A stretch of 64,000 nucleotides of DNA, taken from contig JBGSZS010000018.1 in assembly GCA_041750285.1 (NCBI GenBank), positions 64,048 to 128,047 of the forward strand, given 5' to 3'. Positions 5,329 to 42,892 of this stretch are shown here, piece by piece. Source of the DNA: Candidatus Fermentibacteraceae bacterium. Lineage in GTDB: Bacteria; Fermentibacterota; Fermentibacteria; Fermentibacterales; JCC-6. The first letter of the stretch is position 1, and each line of letters begins with the position of its first letter. The notes beneath the pieces are model-generated. The model ran no database searches, was not told the DNA's origin, and saw nothing but the letters and a program-made list of their open reading frames with translations. Position numbers and translations under genes: made by a program.

Positions 5329-6020
5329 ACCTTTTCACCTCCCTTTGCGGCGATCCTTCTTCCCATGTAGATGAACGGAGTGTCGAAGGCTGCCACAATG
5401 AACTTGATCACGTAAGTGGAAACCAGAACGTCAATGAATACCCGTTTTTCAAGAACTCCCCAGAAGGCGATCCCGCAGAAGATCACCGTGTCGATGAGCT
5501 GGCTGACCATGGTGGACAGGTTGTTGCGAAGCCAGAGGTGCCTGCCCTTCGAAAGCCTCCTGATGTGGTTGTAGGCCCAGACATCGTGGAACTGGCTCAC
5601 AAGGTATGCGGCTATGCTCGCCAGGGCGAGACGAGGCATGAAACCGAAAAGAAGCTTCATTGCGCCGTTCACCTCCATGGCCCATGGGTCCTGCGCCGGC
5701 GAGAACAGAAGCGCCACCTGCATCACGACGGTCATCGCGATCATGCTCACAAAACCGGCGATGACGGCCCTGCGGGCCTCGGCGGGGCCGTAAACCTCGT
5801 TCAGTAGGTCAGTGGCGAAGAAGATGACCCCGTAGAGGATGTTGCCCAGGGTGACTGTGAAGCCGAACAGGGTCGTGAGTTTCATGACCTCGAGGTTGCA
5901 CAGGATGACGGCCGACGCCACCAGGGCGATAAGCCCGGTTTTCCCGCCGGACCGGAATACCAGCAGAGTGGCCGAAAGCATGGCGAAAAGGCTGATGAAC
6001 CAGAGTACTTCGTTGCCCAT
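5325..6020 (-). CDS. yhhQ: queuosine precursor transporter (YhhQ/DUF165 family)
   Basis: Polytopic membrane protein. LGNILYGVIFFATDLLNEVYG matches the conserved YhhQ motif. Confidence 0.75.
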   Translation of the reverse strand: MGNEVLWFISLFAMLSATLLVFRSGGKTGLIALVASAVILCNLEVMKLTTLFGFTVTLGNILYGVIFFATDLLNEVYGPAEARRAVIAGFVSMIAMTVVMQVALLFSPAQDPWAMEVNGAMKLLFGFMPRLALASIAAYLVSQFHDVWAYNHIRRLSKGRHLWLRNNLSTMVSQLIDTVIFCGIAFWGVLEKRVFIDVLVSTYVIKFIVAAFDTPFIYMGRRIAAKGGEKV

Positions 6021-8860
6021 CAGAACTCGGCACCGAGAGTCACATAGTGTTCGGGCTTCTCGCTCACACCGTTGAGGTCGGTTCTCCAGGCGCAGTCCCA
6101 GAGGAAGACGAACAGGCCGAGGTTGAACCTGAGGCCAAAACCGAACCCCATCTTCAGGTCGTTGAGCCTGAACCCGCCGTCGGTCCTCACTGCCCTGAAG
6201 GCGCCCACATCATCGGTGGCCCCGCCTATGTCCGTGAAGATAACCCCCCTGCCTCCGGTCACCGTCAGCGGTATCGGGGCGGCAAGGCTCAACTGGTCGA
6301 CAAAGGGGTATCGGAGCTCGAGGGAGCCCAAAGCGTACCTTGTTCCGTTGTACTCCACGTAGTCGAAGCCCCGCAGCAGGTCTGAGTAGCTCGTGTAGAA
6401 CCCGAAAAGGTCCTCCACACCCTGAACGTCGCCGACGCTCCTGCGGTGTGGGATGGCTCCGCCGAGGAAGAACCTTTGAGGGTCCTCGCCAAAGCTGGCA
6501 CCGGCCGCCAGCCTGGTGGCAATGGTGACCTGGCCCGAAACCCAGGTGTAGTTCCTGATGTCGCCCTGGATGGTTGTGTAACCGGCGTTTTCCCAGAAGC
6601 CGGGGGCCCAGTCCGCCGAGAGGGACATCCTGCTTCCAACCCTGGGTCCCGTTGCCCCCCAGAGAGCGTTGTCGAGAACAAGCCTTCCGCTGAAGGCGAG
6701 TATGTTCTCGCGGAGGTTGATGTCGGTGGACCAGAGCCCCTCCCTGTCCAGCCTTCGGTACCCCACCCCAAGCGAGGCCCTGAGGGAACGGGTGAAGGGG
6801 TAACGCAGTTCCAGCCCCGTTCCTATCTCGGTGTCCCTCACGTAGTCGTTCTCTTCGCTCTGGGTGTCGGTGAACCGGTACCGTGTGGCAAGACGGTACA
6901 GCGACACGCCGTACTGAACCCTGCCCTCCATGTTGGAGTAGAAGCACCCCGCGTCGACATCGCTGACTTCACCGTTGAGATCGGCAAGGATCGCAAGCTG
7001 GTGCCTTGCGAGAATGTCGCTGAAAATGAACTGCGAGTACCCCGCAAGCCCGGCGTAGCTGTCAAAACCGGCTGTGGCACTCACGTAGTCGAGGCTCAGG
7101 CCAGGATCGTAGGGTGAGATCCGCCACGTGCCCGGGGTTGCCAGCGTTGTCTCGACGATGCCGGAGTCGGGGGGCGCGGGAACGGGAGGTGATTCGGGTT
7201 CGCTTCCGGCCCTCTGTGAAAGGTTGCGGGTCAGGAATATCCCGCCTCCGCTCCAGTCCGATGAGTAGAACATTGAAAGCCCGGTGTCGGATGCCCTGGA
7301 AAGGGCGGAGGGGGTTCTGTAGAGGTTGCTTATCCGGGTTACCTCCCCGGTTTCAGCGGACAGGAGGTGGAAATTGGCTCCGCTGCCGGTGTTCATTATG
7401 AACACAACACCCTCGGGGTACGAGACCGGGTTCCGCAGGGAGAAAGGTGTCTCGTAGAGAAGACGGGGGGATTCGCCGGGGAACACTGCGTTCAGTGTGT
7501 AGATCCTGCCGTTCTCCCTTTCTCCCACATAAAGGATGCCCTGGTCGCCCCACCAGAGGTCGCGGGGACTGTCGCCGCCGTCCGTTATCCTTTCGACGGC
7601 TCCGGTTGCGGTGTTCCACAGGTAGATGTCCAGAACCCCTTCACTCATCGCGCTGAAGGCAACACGGCCCCCGTCCGGGGACCATGCCGGGTCGCGGACA
7701 AGCTGAAACTCTACGGGAAGGGCAAGCTCGCCGCCCCCTATGCCCCTTATCAGAAGGCCGTCGGCGTACTGGCCCTGAACCGCGACGGCCACTGAATCCG
7801 ACCCCGGGGAGAAGGCGCCTGTGCGGAACATGGGTGAAGGGCTGGTCTCGTTAAGACCTGCACCGCTGACGGGTCTGAGTATCTCCCTTCCGTCGGCCGT
7901 GCTTCTGACAACCGAAGAGAACCTTCCCCTGTGAAACTCCACGCCCGATGTCATGGCCCCGTCGGGGGAGATCACCGGCTCTGCGAGGACCACTCTCCTG
8001 CGGCCCCTGCTTCCGTCACGGATTATGGGGGTTCCGATGTCGGAGGGGCTCTCTCCTTCGGAAACGGGAGCCCAGTAGGTTTCGCGGGCCCATTCGATGA
8101 ACCGTTCGCTGAACTGCTCGACCGACATGTCGAAGGCGGCCCTGACGGCCCCCTGAAGGCCGTCGTTGTCCCTCAGGTGTCTTACGAAATCGATGTAACG
8201 GTCTTCGCCGTACCTGTCAACCATGAACTTGTAGATGGCCTGACCCTGCCGGTAGACAAGGTAGTCGCTTCGCACGGAGAGCTGCTGGATGGGGACGATC
8301 TGGTTCGCTATGACCATGTCGCGGAACTCGGACTCGCTGTCGATGTCCCACCCCTGAGACGTGTATTCCGCAAGCCCCTCGAGGGTCCAGAGAGGGGCCT
8401 TGCTCCGGACTATCCCATACAGGCTGCGGTCGTAAAGCATGTCGTACACGAAGGCGTGGTTGATCTCGTGTTCCAGCACATGGCGGTACTCGCTGTACAC
8501 ACCAGCGTAGGGAACGACGACCCTGCCCTTGAAGAACTCGGTGAAACCGCCGACCCCCTCGCCGATCTCGCCGCTGATGACCGAGGTCTGGCGGAACCTT
8601 CCCGGCGACCTGTAAACGATGACAGGGATGGGCTCGGAGGGCAGGTACTCGAAAGTCGATGAAAGGGCCTGCATTGACCTTTCGCCGATGACGACGGTGC
8701 TCTCCGCGACCTGCTCGGTTCCCTCTTCGTAGTAGACGGTGAACCTGCTTGAATGAAGCTCCCACCAGGGGTTGTCGTGTGTGAAGACCCTGTTCCTGCC
8801 GTAACCGGTCGCAAGGGCCGTGGAAGCCAGAAGCAAAGGAAGAACGCATCTTGCAGCCAT
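6020..8860 (-). CDS. large outer-membrane protein with an N-terminal HExxH (gluzincin-like) domain, TolB-like beta-propeller repeats and a C-terminal Omp85/BamA-family (Bac_surface_Ag) beta-barrel ending in Phe
   Basis: Signal peptide MAARCVLPLLLASTALA. Zinc-binding motif VLEHEINHAF, with EGLAEY downstream. TolB-like repeat PDGGRVAFSA...DIYLW. C-terminal Omp85 motifs QRFFLGG...LRGFDY, SLELRYPF, GRGVIFTDIGG and GFGFGLRF, and the protein ends in ...LGAEF. No POTRA domains are evident. Confidence 0.7.
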   Translation of the reverse strand: MAARCVLPLLLASTALATGYGRNRVFTHDNPWWELHSSRFTVYYEEGTEQVAESTVVIGERSMQALSSTFEYLPSEPIPVIVYRSPGRFRQTSVISGEIGEGVGGFTEFFKGRVVVPYAGVYSEYRHVLEHEINHAFVYDMLYDRSLYGIVRSKAPLWTLEGLAEYTSQGWDIDSESEFRDMVIANQIVPIQQLSVRSDYLVYRQGQAIYKFMVDRYGEDRYIDFVRHLRDNDGLQGAVRAAFDMSVEQFSERFIEWARETYWAPVSEGESPSDIGTPIIRDGSRGRRRVVLAEPVISPDGAMTSGVEFHRGRFSSVVRSTADGREILRPVSGAGLNETSPSPMFRTGAFSPGSDSVAVAVQGQYADGLLIRGIGGGELALPVEFQLVRDPAWSPDGGRVAFSAMSEGVLDIYLWNTATGAVERITDGGDSPRDLWWGDQGILYVGERENGRIYTLNAVFPGESPRLLYETPFSLRNPVSYPEGVVFIMNTGSGANFHLLSAETGEVTRISNLYRTPSALSRASDTGLSMFYSSDWSGGGIFLTRNLSQRAGSEPESPPVPAPPDSGIVETTLATPGTWRISPYDPGLSLDYVSATAGFDSYAGLAGYSQFIFSDILARHQLAILADLNGEVSDVDAGCFYSNMEGRVQYGVSLYRLATRYRFTDTQSEENDYVRDTEIGTGLELRYPFTRSLRASLGVGYRRLDREGLWSTDINLRENILAFSGRLVLDNALWGATGPRVGSRMSLSADWAPGFWENAGYTTIQGDIRNYTWVSGQVTIATRLAAGASFGEDPQRFFLGGAIPHRRSVGDVQGVEDLFGFYTSYSDLLRGFDYVEYNGTRYALGSLELRYPFVDQLSLAAPIPLTVTGGRGVIFTDIGGATDDVGAFRAVRTDGGFRLNDLKMGFGFGLRFNLGLFVFLWDCAWRTDLNGVSEKPEHYVTLGAEF

Positions 8861-24184: not shown

Positions 24185-24292
24185 AACACCCGGGCGGAAA
24201 CGGGGTGGCCGCGTCACCCGAAGGACACCGCTTACGGCTGCTGCCTTCCGGCCCTGACCGGGTTCGCGGGCTTCCGCCGCGCGGGCCCCGCT
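24185..24292 (-). ncRNA. ffs: signal recognition particle RNA (small 4.5S type)
   Basis: The minus-strand sequence ACCCGGUCAGGGCCGGAAGGCAGCAGCCGUAAGCGG matches the conserved SRP RNA domain IV (E. coli CCAGGUCAGGUCCGGAAGGAAGCAGCCAAGGCAG). A closing helix forms between GGCGGAAGC and GUUUCCGCC. It sits in the canonical position upstream of dnaX. Confidence 0.65.
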
Positions 24293-24369
24293 TCCGTATG
24301 CCCGGGTGCCGCCGCCGACTCGTTGGAACCGGCAGCACCGGAGAATATATGGAAAAAGGGCAAAACCGG

Positions 24370-25839: not shown

Positions 25840-25915
25840 TGGTGGAGATGAGCGGGATCGAACCGCCGGCCTCTGCCTTGCGAAGGCAGCGCTCTACCAA
25901 CTGAGCTACATCCCC
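25840..25915 (-). tRNA. tRNA-Ala (anticodon CGC), CCA encoded
   Basis: GGGGAUGUAGCUCAGUUGGUAGAGCGCUGCCUUCGCAAGGCAGAGGCCGGCGGUUCGAUCCCGCUCAUCUCCACCA. G3:U70 identity pair. Anticodon loop UUCGCAA. Confidence 0.85.
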
Positions 25916-25964: not shown

Positions 25965-28052
25965 TCAGCCCGTGAAAAGGACCCTTCCACCGCCGGACAG
26001 CACGAGCCAGCCTTCGGAGCCCTCTTCCACGCGCACGCCCCCGTCGGATGCCACCAGAGCCTCAGCCCTGACCGTCATCCCGCGGTTCAACCGCATCATT
26101 CGCGTCCGGCCGGCGGCAAAGAACAGGAGTTCGCCCTCGGCGGTTCCGGAAAGCCTGCTGAGCGAAGGCGCCTGTTCGAGACCGAGGGATTCATGTGAAA
26201 GTCCCGATGGTCTGACCGCAAGCATGTCGAACCTTGCCGTCATGCCTTCGGTGTAAGGCATGCGGACCGCCGACTCATACCCCTGGCCCAGAAGAATGGT
26301 TCCGGTGCCCGTGAGGGTTGTTGCGCCATGCTCATCGGATGAGAAGCATACTTCCGAGTCCATCGCCACCACAAAGGCGGGCCGGACCGCAACCGACCCC
26401 TGATGCAGGTGAAGGATTGTGATCTCGGCGTTCTCGACGGGATGAACCGTGTACAGGCCGGATGGAGCCGGCACTTCAACGGCGGGGACAGGCTCTGCTT
26501 CGGTGGCCTCCGTCTTCCCATCTTCAGTGTCTGCCGTTTCTTCCGCGGGTGGTTCCTCCGAAGCGGGCGCCTCTTCGCGAACGGCTTCGGGTTCAGCCAC
26601 AGGTTCGGGTTCGGGTTCGGCTTCCGGACCCCCGAAGATGGAGGTGAGGACCTCTTCCTCATTCACAGGCTCCACGGCGGGAGGCTCCTCCGCAACGGGC
26701 GCCTCCTCGGGAACCGCTTCGGGCTCGGCCACTTGCTCGGGTTCGGCTTCCGGTTCGGTTTCGGCTTCAGGGCCTCCGAAGATGGCCGAGAGATCGGCCT
26801 CTTCCTGCTTCACAGGCTCCTCGGCGGGTGGCTCCACGGCGGGAGGCTCCTCCGCAACGGGCGCTTCCTCGGGAACCGCTTCGGGCTCGGCCACTTGCTC
26901 GGGTTCGGCTTCCGGTTCGGTTTCGGCTTCAGGGCCTCCGAAGATGGAGGTGAGCACCTCTTCCTCATTCACAGGCTCTTCGGCGGGAGGCTCCTCCGCA
27001 GCGGGTGCCTCTTCGGGAACCGCTTCGGGCTCGGGTTCGGGCTCGGGTTCGGGTTCCGGGCCTCCGAAGATGGAGGTGAGCACCTCTTCCTCATTCACAG
27101 GCTCTTCGACGGGTGGCTCTTCCGCAACGGGCGCCTCTTCCTGCACGGTTTCGGAGGGAGCACCCTCTGAAGGCCTTCCGGTGTCGAAGACCGATGCAAG
27201 ATCAAGGGTTTTCTCTTGTGGAGCTGTTGCAGGCCCGGAATCACCGGGCTCGGACTCCCGGGTCCGGCCCGAGCCGCTGAAAATCGAGGAGAAGTCTATC
27301 GGACTTTCGAGATCGGCAGCCGCGGCCCCGGCATCGGCTGGCTCGGCCAGGTCGGCTGCCTTTTTGAAAATACCGGCAAGGTCATCCTTGGAGGATGCAG
27401 GCTTCGCTTCGAAGGATGAGCCGCCGAATATCGAGTCGAGGTCGAGCGCGGGACGGCTCTCCGCGGGTTTCTCCTCCTCGCCGGAGGGTATGCCCATGTT
27501 GGAGAGAAGCTCGGCAACGCCCTCGTCTTCCTGCCTGCCGTTGAGCCCCATGTCAGTGAGAAGGCGGTCGACGCCGGAGTCGGCTGCCGCGAACTCCTCT
27601 TCGGTGCCGGGAACGTCGGGGAAGACCTGCGAACCGTTCGTCACGGTTTCAGGGGTCTCCGGGGCCTGTTCGGGTGAACCTTGCTTGTCGATCCTGGTTA
27701 TGGCCACCTTGGCGCCGTGGTGGCCCGGGTTGATCTCGGCCACAACACGGTAGTTGTCGAGGGCAAGTTCGAAGTCGCCGAGTTCCTCGAGAACCTGCCC
27801 GAGCCTGAAATGAGTGTATATGTTGTTTATCTCGAGGGTCGAGAGCGCTTCGAGCTGTTCGCGGGCCTCTTCCCACAGGCCGAGGCACATGCAGGCATCG
27901 GCCAGAAGGCTTCTTGCCCTGGGTCTTGTGCCGATGAGATCCGTGGCCTTGAGAAGAAGCTCTCGTGCCTGTTCGGCCAGACCCCTTGCGAGATAACCCT
28001 CGGCATCCCTGCACAGGGCTTCGTAGGTATCGCTGGTGAAAGAATCTGCCAT
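25965..28052 (-). CDS. TPR-repeat protein with a long acidic Pro/Glu-rich tandem-repeat linker and a C-terminal globular domain
   Basis: N-terminal TPR repeats (EALCRDAEGYLARGLAEQARELL, NYRVVAEINPGHHGAKV). About four 48-54-aa repeats containing VLTSIFGGPEAEPEPE. A C-terminal roughly 170-aa domain. The antisense ORFs 26403..27170 and 26449..27753 are artefacts of the repeats. Confidence 0.7.
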   Translation of the reverse strand: MADSFTSDTYEALCRDAEGYLARGLAEQARELLLKATDLIGTRPRARSLLADACMCLGLWEEAREQLEALSTLEINNIYTHFRLGQVLEELGDFELALDNYRVVAEINPGHHGAKVAITRIDKQGSPEQAPETPETVTNGSQVFPDVPGTEEEFAAADSGVDRLLTDMGLNGRQEDEGVAELLSNMGIPSGEEEKPAESRPALDLDSIFGGSSFEAKPASSKDDLAGIFKKAADLAEPADAGAAAADLESPIDFSSIFSGSGRTRESEPGDSGPATAPQEKTLDLASVFDTGRPSEGAPSETVQEEAPVAEEPPVEEPVNEEEVLTSIFGGPEPEPEPEPEPEAVPEEAPAAEEPPAEEPVNEEEVLTSIFGGPEAETEPEAEPEQVAEPEAVPEEAPVAEEPPAVEPPAEEPVKQEEADLSAIFGGPEAETEPEAEPEQVAEPEAVPEEAPVAEEPPAVEPVNEEEVLTSIFGGPEAEPEPEPVAEPEAVREEAPASEEPPAEETADTEDGKTEATEAEPVPAVEVPAPSGLYTVHPVENAEITILHLHQGSVAVRPAFVVAMDSEVCFSSDEHGATTLTGTGTILLGQGYESAVRMPYTEGMTARFDMLAVRPSGLSHESLGLEQAPSLSRLSGTAEGELLFFAAGRTRMMRLNRGMTVRAEALVASDGGVRVEEGSEGWLVLSGGGRVLFTG
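26590..27150. repeat. intragenic tandem repeat array (period about 141-162 bp, about 4 copies); copies at 26668..26784 and 26830..26946 are identical except for 1 nt
   Basis: Direct comparison shows ggctccacggcgggaggctcctccgcaacgggcgc[c/t]tcctcgggaaccgcttcgggctcggccacttgctcgggttcggcttccggttcggtttcggcttcagggcctccgaagatgg repeated with a 162-bp offset. Confidence 0.75.
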
Positions 28053-28170: not shown

Positions 28171-28263
28171 ACTGGCGGAGAGGGAGGGATTCGAACCCTC
28201 GAGAACGCAAGCGCCCTACACGGTTTCCAACCGTGCTCCTTCGACCGACTCGGACACCTCTCC
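28171..28263 (-). tRNA. tRNA-Ser (anticodon GGA), long variable arm, CCA encoded
   Basis: GGAGAGGUGUCCGAGUCGGUCGAAGGAGCACGGUUGGAAACCGUGUAGGGCGCUUGCGUUCUCGAGGGUUCGAAUCCCUCCCUCUCCGCCA. Confidence 0.85.
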
Positions 28264-28474: not shown

Positions 28475-28503
28475 TTGAAACTTTCCTATACATTCCATAT
28501 GGT
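28475..28503 (+). promoter_or_regulatory. sigma70-like promoter (TTGAAA -35, 17-nt spacer, TATGGT -10) upstream of the candidate selenoprotein gene
   Basis: tTTGAAActttcctatacattccaTATGGTaagg in an AT-rich stretch, 35 nt upstream of the ATG at 28538. A strong RBS GAAGGAGGTG lies 5 nt before the ATG. Confidence 0.35.
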
Positions 28504-28537
28504 AAGGGTTGGTTTTTTACATTGAAGGAGGTGGTTG

Positions 28538-29539
28538 ATGAAAAGATTCGTTATCCCCGCTCTTCTCGTGCTCGCGGCATTCTCGCTCGCGGCGGAGAGA
28601 ACAGTTCTCTGGGAGTACTTCACCCAGACTGGTTGAGGCACCTGCTACAGCAGCTGGTCAGCTGTTAAGTCCACGATTCAGCCCTTTGTCACCAGTGGAG
28701 ACGTCGCTCCCCTCTACATCTTCTACAACGGCCCCTACGCCAACGCATTCTGCTCAGGCAGGTTCAGCTTCTACGGTGTCACCGCCACACCCACGGTCAA
28801 GATCGACGGCCTTGCCGCCAGCTACACTCCAAGCGCATATCCCGCCGCGATAAACAGCCGTCTCGCCGTACCGAGCTATGTCAGCATCGACGCAAACATG
28901 GTCGGAGGCGCGTCGGGTGGCACCGGTTACTACAGCATAACCGCCGAGCAGGACCTGGGCGTCAGCGGCCAGATCAAGGTCTGGTCCGTTGTGATCCAGG
29001 ACAACTTCATCGCCGCCGGCAGCTGGGGCGGATACACCGGCATGGAGATGATGTGGATGCCGGTCGCCTTCCCTCTCGGCGCCGCCGGACAGGTCATCAG
29101 CTTCACCGGCCCCTACCCCCAGACCGTGCAAGTACAGGGCACCTACACGCTCAACCCCACGATCCACATCTTCAACAACCTCAAGGTCGTCACCTACGTC
29201 CAGCTCGGCAGCGGCACGCGTGAAGTTCTCAACGCCAACTACATTGACCTTCCCGACACCTCAACCGGCGTGTACGGCGAAGAGGCCGCACAGGTCGGCG
29301 AGTCCGCACAGCTGTTCGTCGGCCCCAACCCCTGCAGGGGTCAGTTCACCGTCTCGTCCGTTCTGCCCCAGGGCCAGACCGGAACCGTTTCGGTGTACGA
29401 CATCAGCGGAAGGGTCGTCCAGAGCTTCCCCGCGGGCGGAACCAGCAGCGCCGTCATCGAAGAGACGGGGCTTTACTTCGTACGCATGACCACCAGCACG
29501 GGTCTGGTCGAGAACCGTCAGATCGCAGTCGTAAGGTAG
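28538..29539 (+). CDS. candidate selenoprotein: secreted thioredoxin-fold protein with a U-G-T-C redox motif (in-frame TGA at 28634-28636 read as Sec) and a C-terminal T9SS/FlgD-like sorting domain (333 aa)
   Basis: The ATG at 28538 with a strong RBS encodes the signal peptide MKRFVIPALLVLAAFSLAAERTVLWEYFTQTG, followed by TGA, then GTCYSSWSAVKSTIQPFVTSGDVAPLYIFYNGPYANAFCSGRFSFYGVTATPTVKIDG.... This is colinear with thioredoxin (a beta1 strand, a [C/U]xxC motif, then a cis-Pro PT motif). No further stop occurs for 300 codons, and the frame runs into the listed ORF 28898..29539. The C-terminal QFTVSSVLPQGQTGTVSVYDISGRVVQSFPAGG...GLYFVRMTTSTGLVENRQIAVVR is a T9SS-type C-terminal domain. Confidence 0.55.
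28647..28668 (+). promoter_or_regulatory. bacterial SECIS-like hairpin 11-13 nt downstream of the in-frame UGA
   Basis: mRNA UGA-GGCACCUGCU-ACAGCAGCUGGUCAGCUGUU. A 7-bp stem (A16-U33 to U22-A27, numbered from the U of UGA) carries an apical loop GGUC with G24/U25. In the E. coli fdhF SECIS the apical loop is GGUC with G23/U24, 1 nt closer to the UGA than here. Confidence 0.45.
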
Positions 29540-29557: not shown

Positions 29558-29586
29558 GGGGGCGTCATCCGGCGCCCCCTTTCCCT
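29558..29586 (+). terminator. Rho-independent terminator-like hairpin between the convergent genes
   Basis: gggggcg-tcatccgg-cgccccc followed by tttccct. It lies between the end of the plus-strand gene (29539) and the end of the minus-strand maf (29585). Confidence 0.45.
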
Positions 29587-31105: not shown

Positions 31106-32968
31106 TCAGCGGACGATGGCCAGGCCGAGCCTGTGCGCAGAGCCGCCCACGGTGAGCACCACCATGTAAACACCTGAAGCCACGGGCTGCCCGGACATGT
31201 CACGGCAGTCCCAGAAGAACGATTCGCCATCGATGGGAGCCCTGTAGGTTCCCGCGGACAGACCGCTTCTGTTCTGGGTGTGAACGGGAACGCCGTCGAG
31301 AGTAAACACGGCCAGGGAAACGTCGGACGGCCCCTTTTCAACGTCGAAGCCGACGTGGACGAACCCCGAGGCCGGATTGGGAAAGACCGAGGGCGCAAGG
31401 CCCGAGGGTCCGGCAGGGTCCACGAAAAGGCAGACCTCGGTGCCGCTTTGACCCAGAACGCCCTGAACCGTCATGGGATGCCCCCACTGACCCGGCGCGC
31501 CCGTCACCGTGAATTCGCCGAAAAAGCCGGGTTCGGAAGCGAACCAGCCCATGCCGTTGGTCACCGCTTCCGTCATGGTCTGGCCGTTTTCGATCTCGAC
31601 GGTGTAGCCGGTCAGTGCTTCGCCAGTATCGGACCTTCTGACCCTGCCCGTGACCGACCGGTGCATCATCGCTGCGGTGGCGTCGATCACACCCCACCCG
31701 TAACCGTTGTCGGGTGAGGTGCTCTGTGTGGACGTGGCCTTCAGGGCTTCGGAAATCCGCATCATGGACCATTCGGGGTGGGCCTGGCTTATCGCCGCGA
31801 ACGCCGATGACACGATCGGGGTTGCGAAGGAAGTGCCATTGCCCGAGGAGTACCCGCCGGAAAGGTTTGCGAAAACGGTCATCTCACCCCTGGCGCAGGC
31901 ATCGGGTTTCATGCGGCCGTCTGCAGTGGGGCCGCGGCTGGAGTACGCCGAAAGTGTGCCGAGGCTGTTCACCGAACCCACCGCAAACACCGAGTCTCCG
32001 TCGGAGGGGGCGACGAGGGTGGTGTCTTCCGGGCCGTTGTTGCCCACTGCGTTCACCACGATCAGCCCCCGCGATGCCGCGATGTCGGCCGCCACGGTTG
32101 TCACAGCGGTGTTGCCGTCAAGCTGCCAGGGCTCGTACCAGTCGATGTAGCCCAGGCTGCTGCTTACGATTTCAGCGCCGTTCTGTTCGCACCACTCAAG
32201 CCCGAAGACCCAGAAGTCCTCCTCCTGCTGGTACTCGTCGCCGGTGTCTTCCGTGCGCGCCAGAAGGAAGGAGGCGTCGGGCGCCCCGCCCACGTAAAGC
32301 CCAGGGCTGTCGCCGGCGATGATCGAGAATACAGCGGTTCCATGGATGCCCGTGGTCTCGGAGTCGCCCTCTTCGTAGCCGACATACCCGTCGCCGCCGA
32401 CGAAATCCCACGTTCCGAGGACCTGGGCGCCGGCGAAGCAGTCGTGGCCGAGTTCGAAACCCGAGTCCAGAACACCCATCACAGTCCCGCCCCCCGTGAA
32501 CCCCCTCTCGTGAAGCCCCGTGATGCCGGCCTGCTGAAGCTGCCCGAGTGACAGGCCATGGGGGTCGGGCTCGCCGGAGAACTGGGACGGGGTGTACACG
32601 GAACGCGCCACGGGCCGCACCGAGGCGACGAAGGGAAGGGCACGCACGGCCGCGAGCGCCCGGTCGTCGAGAACCACGCTGCACGCGTTGAGGTAGCGGG
32701 AAACACCCGCTACCGGGGCAAGGGCCTCGGCTGCAACCGTTTCGGTGTATACGTGAAAGGGTTCGAGATCGTAGACATCGGCCTGCAGGGCACCCACGGA
32801 AGCCCTTCTTGATGCCGAGGGGCCCTGTGCGATGAGGTCTGACGCGGCTTCCAGCCGGTGCCCGACCATGGGGCCGCGGTCGGAGAAGAAGACCCAGTAG
32901 CGCACCGGGGTGCTTCCCGGCGATGCGACCGGGAGAAGGAGCACAAGAGCCGTTGCCAGGAGCTTCAC
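31106..32968 (-). CDS. secreted subtilisin-family (S8) serine peptidase with a T9SS/FlgD-like C-terminal sorting domain
   Basis: Catalytic triad contexts VLDSGF (Asp), HGTAVFSIIAG (His) and GTSFATPIVSS (Ser). The C-terminus GVYMVVLTVGGSAHRLGLAIVR is a T9SS-type C-terminal domain. The GTG start at 32966-32968 gives the signal peptide VKLLATALVLLLPVASP. Confidence 0.8.
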   Translation of the reverse strand: MKLLATALVLLLPVASPGSTPVRYWVFFSDRGPMVGHRLEAASDLIAQGPSASRRASVGALQADVYDLEPFHVYTETVAAEALAPVAGVSRYLNACSVVLDDRALAAVRALPFVASVRPVARSVYTPSQFSGEPDPHGLSLGQLQQAGITGLHERGFTGGGTVMGVLDSGFELGHDCFAGAQVLGTWDFVGGDGYVGYEEGDSETTGIHGTAVFSIIAGDSPGLYVGGAPDASFLLARTEDTGDEYQQEEDFWVFGLEWCEQNGAEIVSSSLGYIDWYEPWQLDGNTAVTTVAADIAASRGLIVVNAVGNNGPEDTTLVAPSDGDSVFAVGSVNSLGTLSAYSSRGPTADGRMKPDACARGEMTVFANLSGGYSSGNGTSFATPIVSSAFAAISQAHPEWSMMRISEALKATSTQSTSPDNGYGWGVIDATAAMMHRSVTGRVRRSDTGEALTGYTVEIENGQTMTEAVTNGMGWFASEPGFFGEFTVTGAPGQWGHPMTVQGVLGQSGTEVCLFVDPAGPSGLAPSVFPNPASGFVHVGFDVEKGPSDVSLAVFTLDGVPVHTQNRSGLSAGTYRAPIDGESFFWDCRDMSGQPVASGVYMVVLTVGGSAHRLGLAIVR

Positions 32969-32987
32969 GGGGTGCGGGGCTGCCCCG

Positions 32988-33551
32988 TCAGATCTCGGAC
33001 TCGTCGAACCACTGCCAGATGTACCATTCGCCGTCTTCATCGGGCCTGCAGATGAACTGGGCGCTTCCCGAAGCCCTGTATCCCGTCACGCCGCCGGAAC
33101 CGCCGATGCTGGTGTAGACCTTGAGGTCGAACGTTCGGGGAAGACAGTAGCTTATGCCGGAAGGGTCACCCATCCAGGGGTACTCCTGGGTGCCCGTGAA
33201 GGTGAGCTCTATGAGCTCGACACCGTTGAACATGGCCTGGTGGAACTCGTCTTCCTTGTCGAGCCCCCAGTAAGTGTCGATTATGCCGTCGCCGTTGTAG
33301 TCATCCCAGTCCTGCTCGAGGAGGTGGAACTCGAAGTCGTCGCGGAAGCACTGCATGTAATGGTCGTGGTCGCGGTTGACGTAGGCCATCTGAAGGTTTG
33401 CGAGAACCTTCCAGGCGCTGTCGGCCGGGCTGTAGAAAAGGGGCGGTTCGGTTGGGTCGGGGTCGGCATCGGGGCTGAAAAGACAGCCCGTGAGCGCGAG
33501 AAAAGCTGATATCGTTATCAGCAGGGGTTTTACCGATGCTCCTGTCTTCAC
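32988..33551 (-). CDS. hypothetical lipoprotein
   Basis: MKTGASVKPLLITISAFLALTGC lipobox. The body is acidic and Trp/Tyr-rich. Confidence 0.5.
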   Translation of the reverse strand: MKTGASVKPLLITISAFLALTGCLFSPDADPDPTEPPLFYSPADSAWKVLANLQMAYVNRDHDHYMQCFRDDFEFHLLEQDWDDYNGDGIIDTYWGLDKEDEFHQAMFNGVELIELTFTGTQEYPWMGDPSGISYCLPRTFDLKVYTSIGGSGGVTGYRASGSAQFICRPDEDGEWYIWQWFDESEI

Positions 33552-39683: not shown

Positions 39684-40877
39684 TCAGCTCCTGCGCCGCT
39701 TGATCTCGCTGATCAGGGCGGGGATGACCTCGAAAAGGTCACCGACGAACCCGTGGGTGGCGAAGGTGAATATCGGGGCGTCGGGGTCGCGGTTCACTGC
39801 GAATATCTCGTCGGATGACTGCATTCCCACGCGATGCTGTACGGCGCCGCTGATGCCCACGGCGATGTACCTTTTGGGCTGCACCGTCTTGCCGGTCTGG
39901 CCGACCTGCCTGGGATAGGGAATCCAGCCCGAATCCACCGCCGCGCGGCTTGCGCCCACGCTCCCCCCCAGAAGCCCGGCCAGCTCGTGAAGCATGTCGT
40001 AGTTCTCGGGACCCTTCATGCCACGGCCTCCCGAAACGATCACCCCGGCTTCGGTCAGGTCCACTTCGGTGCCGCCCGATGGAACGAACTCCTCCAGAAC
40101 GGTCCTGCTTGCTGTCATGGAGTCGCAAACCTCGAGATGCTCGACAGGTCCGGTGCGGGAGGCGTCGGGTTCGAGCTTCTTCATGACGCCGGGCCTCACC
40201 GTGGACATCTGGGGGCGGGTACGGTCACATACTATGGTGGCCATAATGTTGCCACCGAAGGCTGGCCTGGTCTGCATCAAAAGGCCGGTTGAGGGATCTA
40301 TCGCCAGTTCGGTGCAGTCAGCCGTGAGACCCGTGTCGAGAAGCTTCGCCACCCTGGGCATGAGGTCGCGGCCCTGTGTGGTTGCCGCAGCCAGAACGAT
40401 CTCGGGTCTGTCGGTGCGGACCGCATGCAGCAGAACTGCAGCGTAAGGCTCGGTCAGGTAGTGCGCAAGCGCGGGATGGGAGGCGGAGAGGACCCTGTCG
40501 GCCCCGTACTGGATGAGCGTGCCGGGAATGTCGGATGGTTCGGCGCAGACAAGAAGGGCCGTGACCCTTCTGTCTTCTCCCGCAAGCCTGCGGGCCTCGC
40601 CCAGAAGCTCGAGGGTGCTGCGGTCCGGCCGGCCGTCCCTCAGTTCGACGACCACCATTATTCCCGTAAAGCCCTCGAGACCGCTTGCACCGCCGATCAC
40701 GTGATGAAGAACGATGGCGTCGAACGGACACGAGTTGACGCACAAGCCGCAGAGACTGCACGCCGGGGATGCCACCGCCTTCCCGCCATCGAGTGAAAGC
40801 GCGCCCAGGGGGCAGCTGGAAAGGCAGGCGCCGCACCCCACGCATTTGTCGGAAAGGATTTCGAGCCTTGATGTCAT
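39684..40877 (-). CDS. etfA: electron transfer flavoprotein alpha subunit with an N-terminal 2x[4Fe-4S] ferredoxin domain (FixB-like)
   Basis: CVGCGACLSSCP and CSLCGLCVNSCP cluster motifs are followed by the EtfA core (PQMSTVRPGV, YIAVGISGAVQH). The start is trimmed to the ATG at 40875-40877, which overlaps the etfB stop in an ATGA junction. Confidence 0.8.
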   Translation of the reverse strand: MTSRLEILSDKCVGCGACLSSCPLGALSLDGGKAVASPACSLCGLCVNSCPFDAIVLHHVIGGASGLEGFTGIMVVVELRDGRPDRSTLELLGEARRLAGEDRRVTALLVCAEPSDIPGTLIQYGADRVLSASHPALAHYLTEPYAAVLLHAVRTDRPEIVLAAATTQGRDLMPRVAKLLDTGLTADCTELAIDPSTGLLMQTRPAFGGNIMATIVCDRTRPQMSTVRPGVMKKLEPDASRTGPVEHLEVCDSMTASRTVLEEFVPSGGTEVDLTEAGVIVSGGRGMKGPENYDMLHELAGLLGGSVGASRAAVDSGWIPYPRQVGQTGKTVQPKRYIAVGISGAVQHRVGMQSSDEIFAVNRDPDAPIFTFATHGFVGDLFEVIPALISEIKRRRS

Positions 40878-41662
40878 CGTGCGTCCTCCCTTCCCAGGAG
40901 AAGGTCGGCCATGATCGATGCAAGCTCTTCCGGTGTTCCCGTATGAATGCTTCCGCCCGTTCTGGCTTCCGGTGTCGCCGTGGTGACCACCTTGGTGGGA
41001 GAGCCTTCCAGCCCGGTTTCGTAAGGGGTGAGGCCGAGATCTTCGGCGCCCCATGCCACGGGCTTGAACGTCCGTGCCCTCATCTTGCCGCGAAGTGACG
41101 GAATACGAGGTACGTTCGCGTCCTTGAGGACGGTGATGACAGCCGGAAGCGCAACCCTGAGAACCTGAACGCCCGTCTCCACGTATCTTTCGCAAACCAT
41201 GCTGCGGTCCGTCATTTCCCTGACCCTGCCCACGAACGTCACCTGGGGCCAGTCGAGGGATGCGGCGATGCCGGGGCCCGTCTGGGCCGTGTCGCCGTCG
41301 ATGGCCTGCTTTCCGCAGAACACGGCGTCGACGCCGGTCATCTTTCGAACGGCCTCGGCAATGGTGTGGCTGGTGGCCCAGGTGTCGCTTCCCGCAAAAG
41401 CCCTGTCGGTGAGGAGGATGCCCTCGTCGGCCCCCATGGAGACAGCCTCGGTCAGAATGGCCTCTGCCTGGGGCGGACCCATGGTGACGACGGTAACCGT
41501 TCCGCCCAGCTTGTCACGCCACTTGAGGGCTTCTTCGAGGGCGTAGGTGTCGAAGGGGTTCAGGATGCTCGGCACTCCGTCACGGATGAGGGTGCCCCGC
41601 TCATGGTCGATCCGCACTTCAGCGGTGTCGGGAACCTGCTTGACCGCAACGACGAACTTCAA
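40874..41662 (-). CDS. etfB: electron transfer flavoprotein beta subunit
   Basis: MKFVVAVKQVPDT...NPFD is an EtfB N-terminus. Confidence 0.85.
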   Translation of the reverse strand: MKFVVAVKQVPDTAEVRIDHERGTLIRDGVPSILNPFDTYALEEALKWRDKLGGTVTVVTMGPPQAEAILTEAVSMGADEGILLTDRAFAGSDTWATSHTIAEAVRKMTGVDAVFCGKQAIDGDTAQTGPGIAASLDWPQVTFVGRVREMTDRSMVCERYVETGVQVLRVALPAVITVLKDANVPRIPSLRGKMRARTFKPVAWGAEDLGLTPYETGLEGSPTKVVTTATPEARTGGSIHTGTPEELASIMADLLLGREDAR

Positions 41663-41665
41663 TGG

Positions 41666-42826
41666 CTACCTCGCTCCCGCTGCGGTTTCCCGAATGAGGG
41701 CGCTTGCTATGACCGAGCGCTGGATCTGGTTGGTGCCCTCGTAGATCTGTGTGATCTTGGCATCACGCATCATCTTTTCGACCGGGTACTCCTTCATGTA
41801 GCCGTATCCGCCGAGGATCTGGACCGCGTCGGTGGTTACCTTCATTGCCACATCGCTCGCGAACACCTTTGCCATGGCTGATTCCTTCTCGAACCGTCCC
41901 TTGCCCGAGTCGATCATCCTGGCCACGGAGTAGGTAAGGGCGCGGGCGGCCTCGATCGAAGTCGCCATGTCGGCCAGCATGAACTGGATGCCCTGGAAAC
42001 TGTCTATGCGCTGCCCGAACTGGCGCCGCCCCGAAGCGTAGACCAGTGCCTCGTCCAGCGCGCCCTGGGCGATCCCGATGGCCTGGGCCGCGACCCCGGG
42101 TCTGCTGTTGTCGAGGGTTTTCATGGCAACCATGAAACCCATGCCTTCACGGGAGATGAGGTTTTCGGCGGGAATGCGGCAGTCCTCGAAGACCAGTTCC
42201 CTTGTGGAACTGGCACGGATGCCCATCTTGTCTTCCTTTTTCCCGTAGCTGAACCCCGGGGTGCCCTCTTCGACAATGAAGGCGGTTGCGCCGCGTGCGC
42301 CGCGGGTCGGGTCGGTCATGGCGATGACCGTGTAGATCTGGGCTTCCCCGCCGTTCGTTATCCACTGTTTGGTTCCGTTGAGAACGTAGTGGTCGCCGTC
42401 GCGCACGGCCCTTGTCTTGATCCCCGCCGCGTCGCTTCCGGCTTCCGATTCGGTCAGGGCGAATGCGCAGAGCTTCTCGCCCGAGGCCAGGGGGGGGAGG
42501 AACTTCAGTTTCTGCTCTTCGGTGCCGAAAAGAAGAATGGGCATGGCACCCAGGGCATTCGCCGCGTAGGAGACTGCGATACCGCCGCAGGCCCTGCTGA
42601 GCTCCTCGGTCGCCACACAGAGGGCAAGGCTTCCCATCCCGGTGCCACCGTACGCCTCGGGTATGTAGATCGTGAAAAGGTCGCTCTGGGCCAGAACTCC
42701 CATGATCTCGCGCGGAAAACGGTTTTCCTCGTCGAGCTGTGCCCTGACGGGTCGAATGTGTTTGGCGGCGATCTCGGCGCAGATATCCCGAATTGCCATC
42801 AGGTCTTCGCTGAGCATGTAGTCCAT
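41666..42826 (-). CDS. acyl-CoA dehydrogenase (short/medium-chain type)
   Basis: [49 protein letters not shown]. The start is trimmed to MDYMLSEDL. Confidence 0.85.
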
Positions 42827-42892
42827 GTCCTTATCCTCCGATTTCGGCGTTCGCACCGGCACGGGCCGACCAGGCCGGCGCGTGACGGGCCG

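Follow-up and report, generated by a model that had tools for sequence, protein, structure and literature searches.

In a window of 64,000 nucleotides from a Candidatus Fermentibacteraceae bacterium (contig JBGSZS010000018.1), the forward strand carries a reading frame at 28538..29539 that is interrupted by a single in-frame TGA, and we are highly confident that this stretch is one gene encoding a genuine 333-residue selenoprotein. The coding sequence begins with ATG 28538, 6 nt downstream of a GGAGG ribosome-binding site (28527..28531, read from the sequence), and comprises 333 codons, including selenocysteine (Sec) 33, before the stop TAG 29537-29539; all features of the gene described below are on the same strand. 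Its first part (28538..28591) encodes a signal peptide of the Sec export type, MKRFVIPALLVLAAFSLA, as judged by reading the translation, with predicted cleavage after SLA, and all homologs of the clade begin with equivalent hydrophobic N-termini. The post-signal stretch, AERTVLWEYFTQTG, lies directly 5' of TGA 28634-28636 and GTCYSSWSAVK lies directly 3' of it; apart from this TGA, the readthrough frame is free of disruption. An earlier sequence-only reading had described a strong ribosome-binding site and start, a signal peptide followed by TVLWEYFTQTG, the TGA, GTCYSS, and a frame open for about 300 codons past the TGA, and each of these was found where that reading had placed it. It had also warned that standard gene calling would split the locus. 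In line with this, a mechanical listing of open reading frames (ORFs) yields only 28898..29539 (213 aa), and in an identical public contig the gene caller had divided the locus into separate 32-aa and 213-aa products.

Such a division amounts to reading the TGA as a genuine stop, which would end a 32-residue peptide gene and be followed by a separate gene starting, for example, at ATG 28898. Gene callers make exactly this split, TGA is the usual stop in the window, and the window holds no Sec machinery. To set against this, homologs were compared. A search of a collection of 5.8 billion proteins returned 152 relatives, the best 120 of which were examined as a list; in 119 of these 120, both signal peptide and active site are missing, and P0101 is the sole full-length sequence, reading FSTIT-C-GP-C where the window gene has TGA. 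The shortened relatives among the best 120 are 191-292 aa long, with differing "starts" at M, V, and L codons in different positions. Among the matches listed, all named relatives belong to Candidatus Fermentibacteria, Aegiribacteria, or Sabulitectum, and most are labeled only as "T9SS type A sorting domain-containing protein" (T9SS, type IX secretion system). Forty-eight genomic loci (given here as L numbers) were fetched and translated upstream of each match. An in-frame TGA was present at exactly the aligned codon in 55 genes, namely, that of the window and 54 genes in 47 of the 48 loci, and TAA or TAG never occurred there. These TGA genes are about 330 codons long, each with an in-frame start, a signal peptide, and the strand AERxVLxEYFTQTG upstream of the TGA.

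In 15 remote homologs, CxxC is aligned so that its first Cys, which is invariant, falls in the TGA column, and four homologous genes carry TGC or TGT there. Three of these four share 66-72% identity with Sec forms, versus only 33-38% with outside homologs, and are therefore nested within the TGA clade. Over the 15 codons 5' of the TGA, the positional entropies in 54 genes are 0.46/0.41/1.41, indicating that this stretch is translated in the frame of the TGA. A genuine stop fits poorly with this picture, since the downstream "starts" vary among homologs, the Cys homologs read straight through, and the 96 nt from the signal peptide to the first possible start are in frame and conserved as protein. 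It would also leave a shortened product whose thioredoxin fold had neither strand b1 nor an active site, and one that has a T9SS domain but no signal peptide, whereas T9SS substrates require a Sec-dependent signal peptide (PMC12618676). We therefore consider a genuine stop very improbable. The sequence-only reading had placed Sec at the first Cys of CxxC and had advised asking whether homologs carry Cys or TGA at this codon or end there as a separate gene; they do not end there, TGA is found in 55 of the 59 genes, and the Cys homologs align their Cys to it.

A sequencing or assembly error for TGC or TGT, or a pseudogene confined to this genome, was also considered. A one-base change would give an ordinary CxxC protein, and Cys forms exist in the family. 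However, the identical 1002-nt gene, including the TGA, is present in two other, independent assemblies, which removes sequencing error as an explanation, and 54 other genes from different metagenome-assembled genomes and studies have TGA at the same codon. The TGA thus recurs in many assemblies, where the sequence-only reading had still allowed for an artifact. The otherwise undisrupted frame, and a hairpin and a U preceding the UGA that are conserved only in TGA forms, likewise speak against an error or a decayed gene, and the probability that remains for either is negligible. The base before the UGA is invariably U in 54 genes (28631-28636 in the window), and the Gly codon to which it belongs is GGU in 50 of the 54, in a genome of 62% G+C; this suggests a context requirement, either for Sec insertion or against termination. 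On the other side of the UGA, the resolving Cys36 of the UxxC motif (TGC at 28643..28645) is invariant in the family, where it is encoded by TGC in 30 genes and TGT in 24.

Shortly 3' of the UGA, at 28649..28666, the coding sequence can form a hairpin with a 7-bp stem (AGCAGCU/AGCUGUU) and an apical loop, GGUC, at 28656-28659. Counted from the U of the UGA, it occupies nt 16-33, and the loop starts 19 nt after the UGA; in the model of the bacterial selenocysteine insertion sequence (SECIS), the spacing from UGA to loop is about 16-37 nt. A hairpin within the coding sequence shortly after the UGA, with a G in the apical loop, is common to the window gene and to bacterial SECIS elements such as that of Escherichia coli fdhF, although the stem in the window is short and no bulged U is evident. 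Most family genes read AGCAGCU-GGUC-AGCUGUU, and in one sub-clade the loops are CGGG or AGGC instead of GGUC. Conservation of the hairpin was judged by explicit pair counts and not by RNAalifold, which found a weak consensus (-1.13 kcal/mol) in the 48-nt alignment, with two of the seven pairs missing. In the 54-sequence alignment, 92.1% of cells are paired, versus 64.8% or less after the 3' partner is shifted, and double-sided changes occupy 23 cells versus 4.4 in shuffles (0 of 500 shuffles reached the observed value). Pair 22-27 changed from UA to GC nine times and pair 19-30 from AU to GC four times. Pair 21-28 changed from CG to UA four times, and here a synonymous Ser change (AGC>AGU) is coupled to GCU>ACU (Ala>Thr), so that pairing is kept at the price of an amino acid replacement.

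Codon usage tells the same story. Third-position entropy is low in codons +5 to +9 (0.23, 0.61, 0.31, 1.08, and 0.51) and mostly 1.2-1.9 in the flanks; at Ala +9, 45 of 54 genes have GCU, while all four synonyms occur among the Ala codons upstream. Judged by these comparisons, the hairpin is under selection at the RNA level, and the SECIS-like hairpin that the sequence-only reading had proposed at the canonical distance is conserved with covariation. It visibly constrains the protein, in the segment SSWSAVK and in the Ala>Thr replacement paired with a synonymous Ser change, and is thus a case of RNA structure shaping a coding sequence. Two of the Cys forms nested in the Sec clade (L038:10073-10132 and L040:8850-8909) retain a strong 9-bp hairpin, GUGCUUACC-CUCA-GGUAAGUGC, at nt 17-38 after the TGC, with a loop that has no G; this may be a SECIS relic or chance. 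An Rfam match to the L25 leader on the opposite strand was dismissed as chance.

TGA is the commonest stop in the window, where it ends 51 of 70 selected ORFs, and a window-wide scan for in-frame TGAs flanked by open frames with high third-position G+C gave no convincing further selenoprotein candidate. These observations point to site-specific recoding and not to a reassigned codon. UGA has been reassigned to Gly or Trp in some uncultivated lineages, and readthrough without Sec, by near-cognate insertion of Trp or Cys or by a lineage-specific reassignment of this kind, would produce the same full-length frame; in its favor, the case for Sec insertion is built on sequence comparison. Against it stand not only the use of TGA as a stop elsewhere in the window but also the position of the recoded site, which is always that of the catalytic Cys, and the hairpin that always follows, whose apical loop positions are rich in G, like those of bacterial SECIS. 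In addition, the relatives encode tRNA-Sec, SelA, SelB, and a SelD that itself contains Sec, sometimes adjoining the gene. Readthrough without Sec is accordingly highly unlikely in our view, and TGA 28634-28636 almost certainly encodes selenocysteine, as far as comparison of the genes can tell.

The machinery of the relatives was found in several places. A tRNA-Sec lies 2.9 kb from the family gene in L014 (ARAGORN; Rfam RF01852 at 75.7 bits, gathering score 47). In the Sabulitectum-type loci L033 (347-6080), L034, and L036, a cluster of selD (on the minus strand), selA, and selB directly adjoins the family gene. The SelD of these three loci is a TGA selenoprotein (AACAG-U-AGK) with the TGA at the known Sec site, and its SECIS has the stem UCCCGGCA/UGUCGGGA and an apical loop GGU at nt 26-28. 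SelB with winged-helix domains was found across Fermentibacteria, Aegiribacteria, and Sabulitectum. One copy, P0157, preceded by selA, is on the 1.04-Mb contig that carries L002, an 80%-identical ortholog syntenic with the window (tRNA-Ala, tRNA-Ser(GGA), gene), and a further copy is on the 2.52-Mb chromosome of L017. The tRNA adjoining the window gene was considered as a tRNA-Sec and rejected, being tRNA-Ser(GGA).

Several loci carry more than one copy of the gene. Tandem arrays of two to three Sec paralogs are present at L001:8893-11005, L007:7079-10326, L017:7696-11008, and L024:5725-9125; in L001, which is most closely related to the window (87%), tRNA-Ser(GGA) is followed by two copies, compared with one in the window. 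At L044:1621-3732, a Sec family gene is followed by a tandem Cys paralog (TGC) that belongs to a different, outside family of Omp28-related Cys proteins (64% identity to P0246). A very distant homolog with 24% identity and a FlgD_ig-type tail, L048:9998-11053, which comes from an unplaced "uncultured bacterium," likewise has TGA at this codon, followed in the same place by a hairpin of unrelated sequence, CCUGCG-GUGGAAU-CGCAGG. The use of Sec therefore reaches beyond the core clade.

In order to describe the architecture of the protein, an AlphaFold2 model of P0101 was analyzed. With a mean predicted local distance difference test score of 86.8, the model contains a thioredoxin fold, a beta-sandwich (117-236), and a C-terminal domain (254-327). 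Secondary structure assigned by DSSP (E22-28, H33-51, E55-61, H69-79, E86-89, E93-96, and H100-111) gives the topology b1-CxxC-a1-b2-a2-b3-b4-a3, which is that of a thioredoxin fold, and position 33 (C), C36, and P85 are invariant in alignment A4. In the window gene, the thioredoxin-like domain (aa 19-112) is encoded by 28592..28873, and its active site, U33-G-T-C36, lies where helix 1 begins. Pro85 (28790..28792), in TATPTVKIDG before strand b3, is invariant also in alignment A1 and in the remote homologs; it corresponds to the cis-Pro position of thioredoxin folds, and its cis conformation is predicted from this position. The thioredoxin architecture put forward in the sequence-only reading is thus upheld by the model topology and the invariant proline. 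A middle, Ig-like beta-sandwich (approximately aa 113-240, 28874..29257) holds the family signature FTGPYPQT. Sequence matches to thioredoxin and DUF1223 models are weak (1fo5 at E 0.069).

At its C-terminus, the protein carries a T9SS type A sorting domain (aa 262-333, 29321..29536; PF18962 and TIGR04183). Residues 262-324 score 31.4 bits on PF18962 (cut-off, 27) and 34.8 bits on TIGR04183 (cut-off, 23), so that the tail assigned by eye in the sequence-only reading is recovered by both models. The N-terminal Sec-dependent signal peptide expected of a T9SS type A cargo, identified by reading, belongs to the protein only if the TGA is read through. A sub-threshold tail of the same type (TIGR04183 at 19.5 bits; cut-off, 23) is present in an S8 subtilase encoded at 31106-33040 on the minus strand; this enzyme, encoded 1.6 kb away from the selenoprotein, is probably a further secreted cargo.

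The best match of the P0101 model in a Foldseek search of the PDB was HBP35 of Porphyromonas gingivalis (5Y1A; E 5.6e-14, TM scores of 0.57/0.60, over the whole chain). Searches of PDB sequences with the family profiles matched gingipain and other solved T9SS C-terminal domains and, weakly, thioredoxins, and did not recover 5Y1A. HBP35, a T9SS cargo of 344 residues, has a thioredoxin motif of the form C48-x-x-C51 (Shoji et al. 2010; PMC2907840). Its disulfide reductase activity, shown on insulin, requires these two Cys residues; HBP35 also complements an E. coli dsbA mutant, binds hemin via its C-terminal half, and is brought to the cell surface by its C-terminal domain (PMC2907840). The window protein has the same size and the same order of parts, namely, signal peptide, thioredoxin-like domain, beta-sandwich, and T9SS C-terminal domain, and on the P0101 model the three domains are found in one chain of approximately 340 residues. 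The two differ in that HBP35, from Bacteroidota, carries Cys, whereas the window protein carries Sec.

A relationship to known selenoproteins was found through the Omp28-related families. NF045500 is the NCBIfam model "Omp28-related selenoprotein," with a curated cut-off of 200 bits, and a 2026 inventory of prokaryotic selenoproteins equates it with "hypothetical protein GOS_C" (PMC13188914). Zhang and Gladyshev described GOS_C from ocean metagenomes in 2008 as a family of unknown function that comprises 74 Sec sequences and 312 Cys homologs and combines a Trx-like fold with a UxxC motif (PMC2398784). Like the window protein, GOS_C looks secreted, is thioredoxin-like, and has UxxC at the start of helix 1, and its genes are likewise shortened by gene callers. 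When the clade profile was compared with GOS_C using hhalign, the probability was 92.9% and the E value 3.8e-7, with Sec aligned on Sec: RVVMVEDFTGLNUPYCP of GOS_C stands opposite RTVLWEYFTQTGUGTCY of the window protein.

This alignment, the UxxC in a thioredoxin-like domain common to both, and the remote homologs that match the NF045500 and Omp28 models could mean that nothing is new at the family level, the clade being a divergent branch of GOS_C that lies beyond the reach of the NCBI model. Other results stand against membership. The window protein has no NF045500 match, and four other scanned clade members (three Fermentibacteria and the unplaced L048) score 19.8-38.3 bits, far below the cut-off of 200. 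Scores for GOS_C sequences are 337-433 bits, with 336.7 for a read from the supplement of PMC2398784. Pairwise BLASTP of the window protein with GOS_C was not significant, and homology was detected only over the approximately 90 residues of the thioredoxin-like domain; the C-terminal region of the NF045500 model (approximately 293-377) is not matched by the window protein. GOS_C relatives lack the T9SS C-terminal domain: they have PF02412 or MtsC-like repeats and no PF18962 (Por_Secre_tail), ending in a thrombospondin-type-3 region and acidic, dockerin-like repeats (the latter recognized by eye). The sources also differ, GOS_C coming from marine surface-water metagenomes and the window clade from Fermentibacteria.

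Moreover, outside the clade the closest relatives carry Cys, and the Sec of the clade may therefore have arisen independently of that in the marine GOS_C. On Omp28 PF11551, the score of the window protein is 13 bits (E 0.09, aa 79-233), below the cut-off of 34.9, and matches at an E value of 1 or less occur in 15 of 25 clade members (best, 1.6e-5). Homology to the Omp28 superfamily is supported instead by transitive phmmer matches to Omp28-positive proteins: a phmmer search from P0101 against 1.84 billion representatives returned 356 clusters, and P0101 and 14 remote matches, 15 full-length sequences of approximately 330-350 aa, were aligned. These Cys proteins share RxVLxExFTNSGCxPC, with an invariant CxxC, the conserved Pro, and the C-terminal domain; 14 of the 15 match Omp28, and all 15 match Por_Secre_tail. 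Cys Omp28-related proteins (PF11551 and PF18962; NF033782) thus have the same fold motifs and the T9SS domain at 25-37% identity, but all of them carry Cys. On balance, we regard membership of GOS_C as unlikely, while giving it appreciable weight.

Predicted exported selenoproteins of the DsbA-like, DsbG-like, and thiol:disulfide interchange types act outside the cytoplasm, in the periplasm. The inventory table lists them as UxxC thioredoxin-fold selenoproteins, but they belong to different families and none is listed with a T9SS sorting domain (PMC13188914). Neither this inventory (PMC13188914) nor the deep-Sep and BSepDB papers mention T9SS, a sorting domain, Omp28, or Fermentibacteria, and literature searches that paired selenocysteine or selenoprotein with Fermentibacteria, Hyd24-12, T9SS, or Omp28 brought up no paper describing the clade. 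The sequence-only reading had known of no comparable family. In that it went too far, since the architecture is already known in the Cys analog HBP35 and Sec at the homologous site is already known in GOS_C/NF045500; what holds is that no description of Sec combined with a T9SS domain was found. What appears to be new is a Fermentibacteria-wide, tandemly duplicated Sec clade with a T9SS sorting domain that fails the existing selenoprotein model. That this is the first T9SS-exported selenoprotein family, placing a Sec active site on or outside strictly anaerobic Fermentibacteria, and perhaps with a Sec gained separately from that of GOS_C, is a claim that we advance tentatively, with slightly more doubt than confidence.

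If the locus is read as a selenoprotein gene, the following course of events can be proposed. Translation would start at ATG 28538 and meet the UGA at codon 33, where the mRNA hairpin at 28649-28666 would recruit SelB carrying Sec-tRNA(Sec), and Sec would be inserted in place of termination. The product would then be exported to the periplasm via its Sec-type signal peptide and carried by the T9SS across the outer membrane, to the cell surface or outside the cell. There it may act as a selenol/thiol-disulfide oxidoreductase, a Sec version of P. gingivalis HBP35; export by T9SS is predicted from the sorting domain, and redox activity from the analogy with HBP35. Substrates could, as speculation, be disulfides of extracellular proteins or polysulfide in sulfidic habitats.

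A number of observations weigh against this reading in one part or another. No tRNA-Sec, selA, selB, or selD was found within the 64-kb window, and tblastn of the window with E. coli SelA, SelB, and SelD sequences gave no match; we therefore infer the Sec competence of the source genome, and Sec insertion in the source organism itself, from its relatives. The search for this machinery recommended in the sequence-only reading thus succeeded in the lineage, sometimes right beside the gene, but not in the window. Folding of 28625-28710 alone was no better than that of shuffles (z = 0.62), and no Rfam SECIS family matched even at permissive E values, which sets the hairpin apart from known bacterial SECIS; its support comes from comparison between genes and not from thermodynamics. 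The structural model was built on a Cys homolog, P0101, that is 44% identical to the window protein. T9SS machinery (Sov/SprA, PorV, PorU, and GldKLMN) was not found among the scanned window proteins, the genome beyond them not having been searched. Finally, we know of no electron donor for a surface thioredoxin.

If the proposed export is correct, the predicted enzyme would pass the Sec pathway and the T9SS to the cell surface, where we found no selenoprotein described, and extracellular disulfide reduction or isomerization, or polysulfide reduction, would be candidate chemistry. The tandem arrays and the occasional linkage to selD-selA-selB suggest a lineage-specific extracellular redox chemistry based on selenium, in a phylum that is often found in anaerobic digesters and sediments. 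As a characterized Cys analog, HBP35 offers ready assays. The clade would also add to the known selenoproteome, lying outside the curated models, including NF045500, and being absent from the 2026 inventory. With 119 of the best 120 relatives lacking the active site, automated pipelines miss the chemistry of an abundant protein family.

The surroundings of the gene were also inspected. Upstream, a promoter-like site, TTGAAA-17-TATGGT (28475..28503, forward strand), was reported by a consensus scan as one site versus 0.3 expected; it is a weak candidate and no proof of function, as the scan consensus may not be that of this phylum. Downstream, between the gene and the convergent maf, a G+C-rich inverted repeat, GGGGGCG...CGCCCCC followed by TTT (29558..29582, forward strand), is a possible terminator, on weak evidence, given that the terminator scan did not report it. 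The neighbors are housekeeping genes (dnaX, a tetratricopeptide repeat [TPR] protein, maf, dtd, and an S8 peptidase) and offer no hint as to function. Three RNA genes lie upstream on the minus strand, namely, the signal recognition particle RNA (24195-24293), tRNA-Ala(CGC) (25840-25915), and tRNA-Ser(GGA) (28173-28263). The order tRNA-Ala, tRNA-Ser(GGA), gene is kept in L001 and L002, and in L004, whose record starts nearby, only tRNA-Ser(GGA) is seen.

Other proteins encoded in the window have unusual architectures. The TPR protein at 25965-28052 (minus strand) has 695 aa; TPR repeats form its N-terminal part, and a long acidic region consists of near-identical units in tandem (...EEVLTSIFGGPEAEPEPEPE...EEAPVAEEPP...). 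At 6020-8860 (minus strand), a 946-aa protein combines Peptidase_MA_2, TolB-like beta-propeller repeats, and a C-terminal Omp85 barrel, an unusual fusion. At 39684-42862 (minus strand), an electron transfer flavoprotein (Etf) alpha subunit with an N-terminal 4Fe-4S ferredoxin domain adjoins an acyl-CoA dehydrogenase, in what looks, from the sequence, like an electron-bifurcating Bcd/Etf-type module; downstream of this pair are the fatty acid synthesis genes fabF, fabG, fabH, and plsX.

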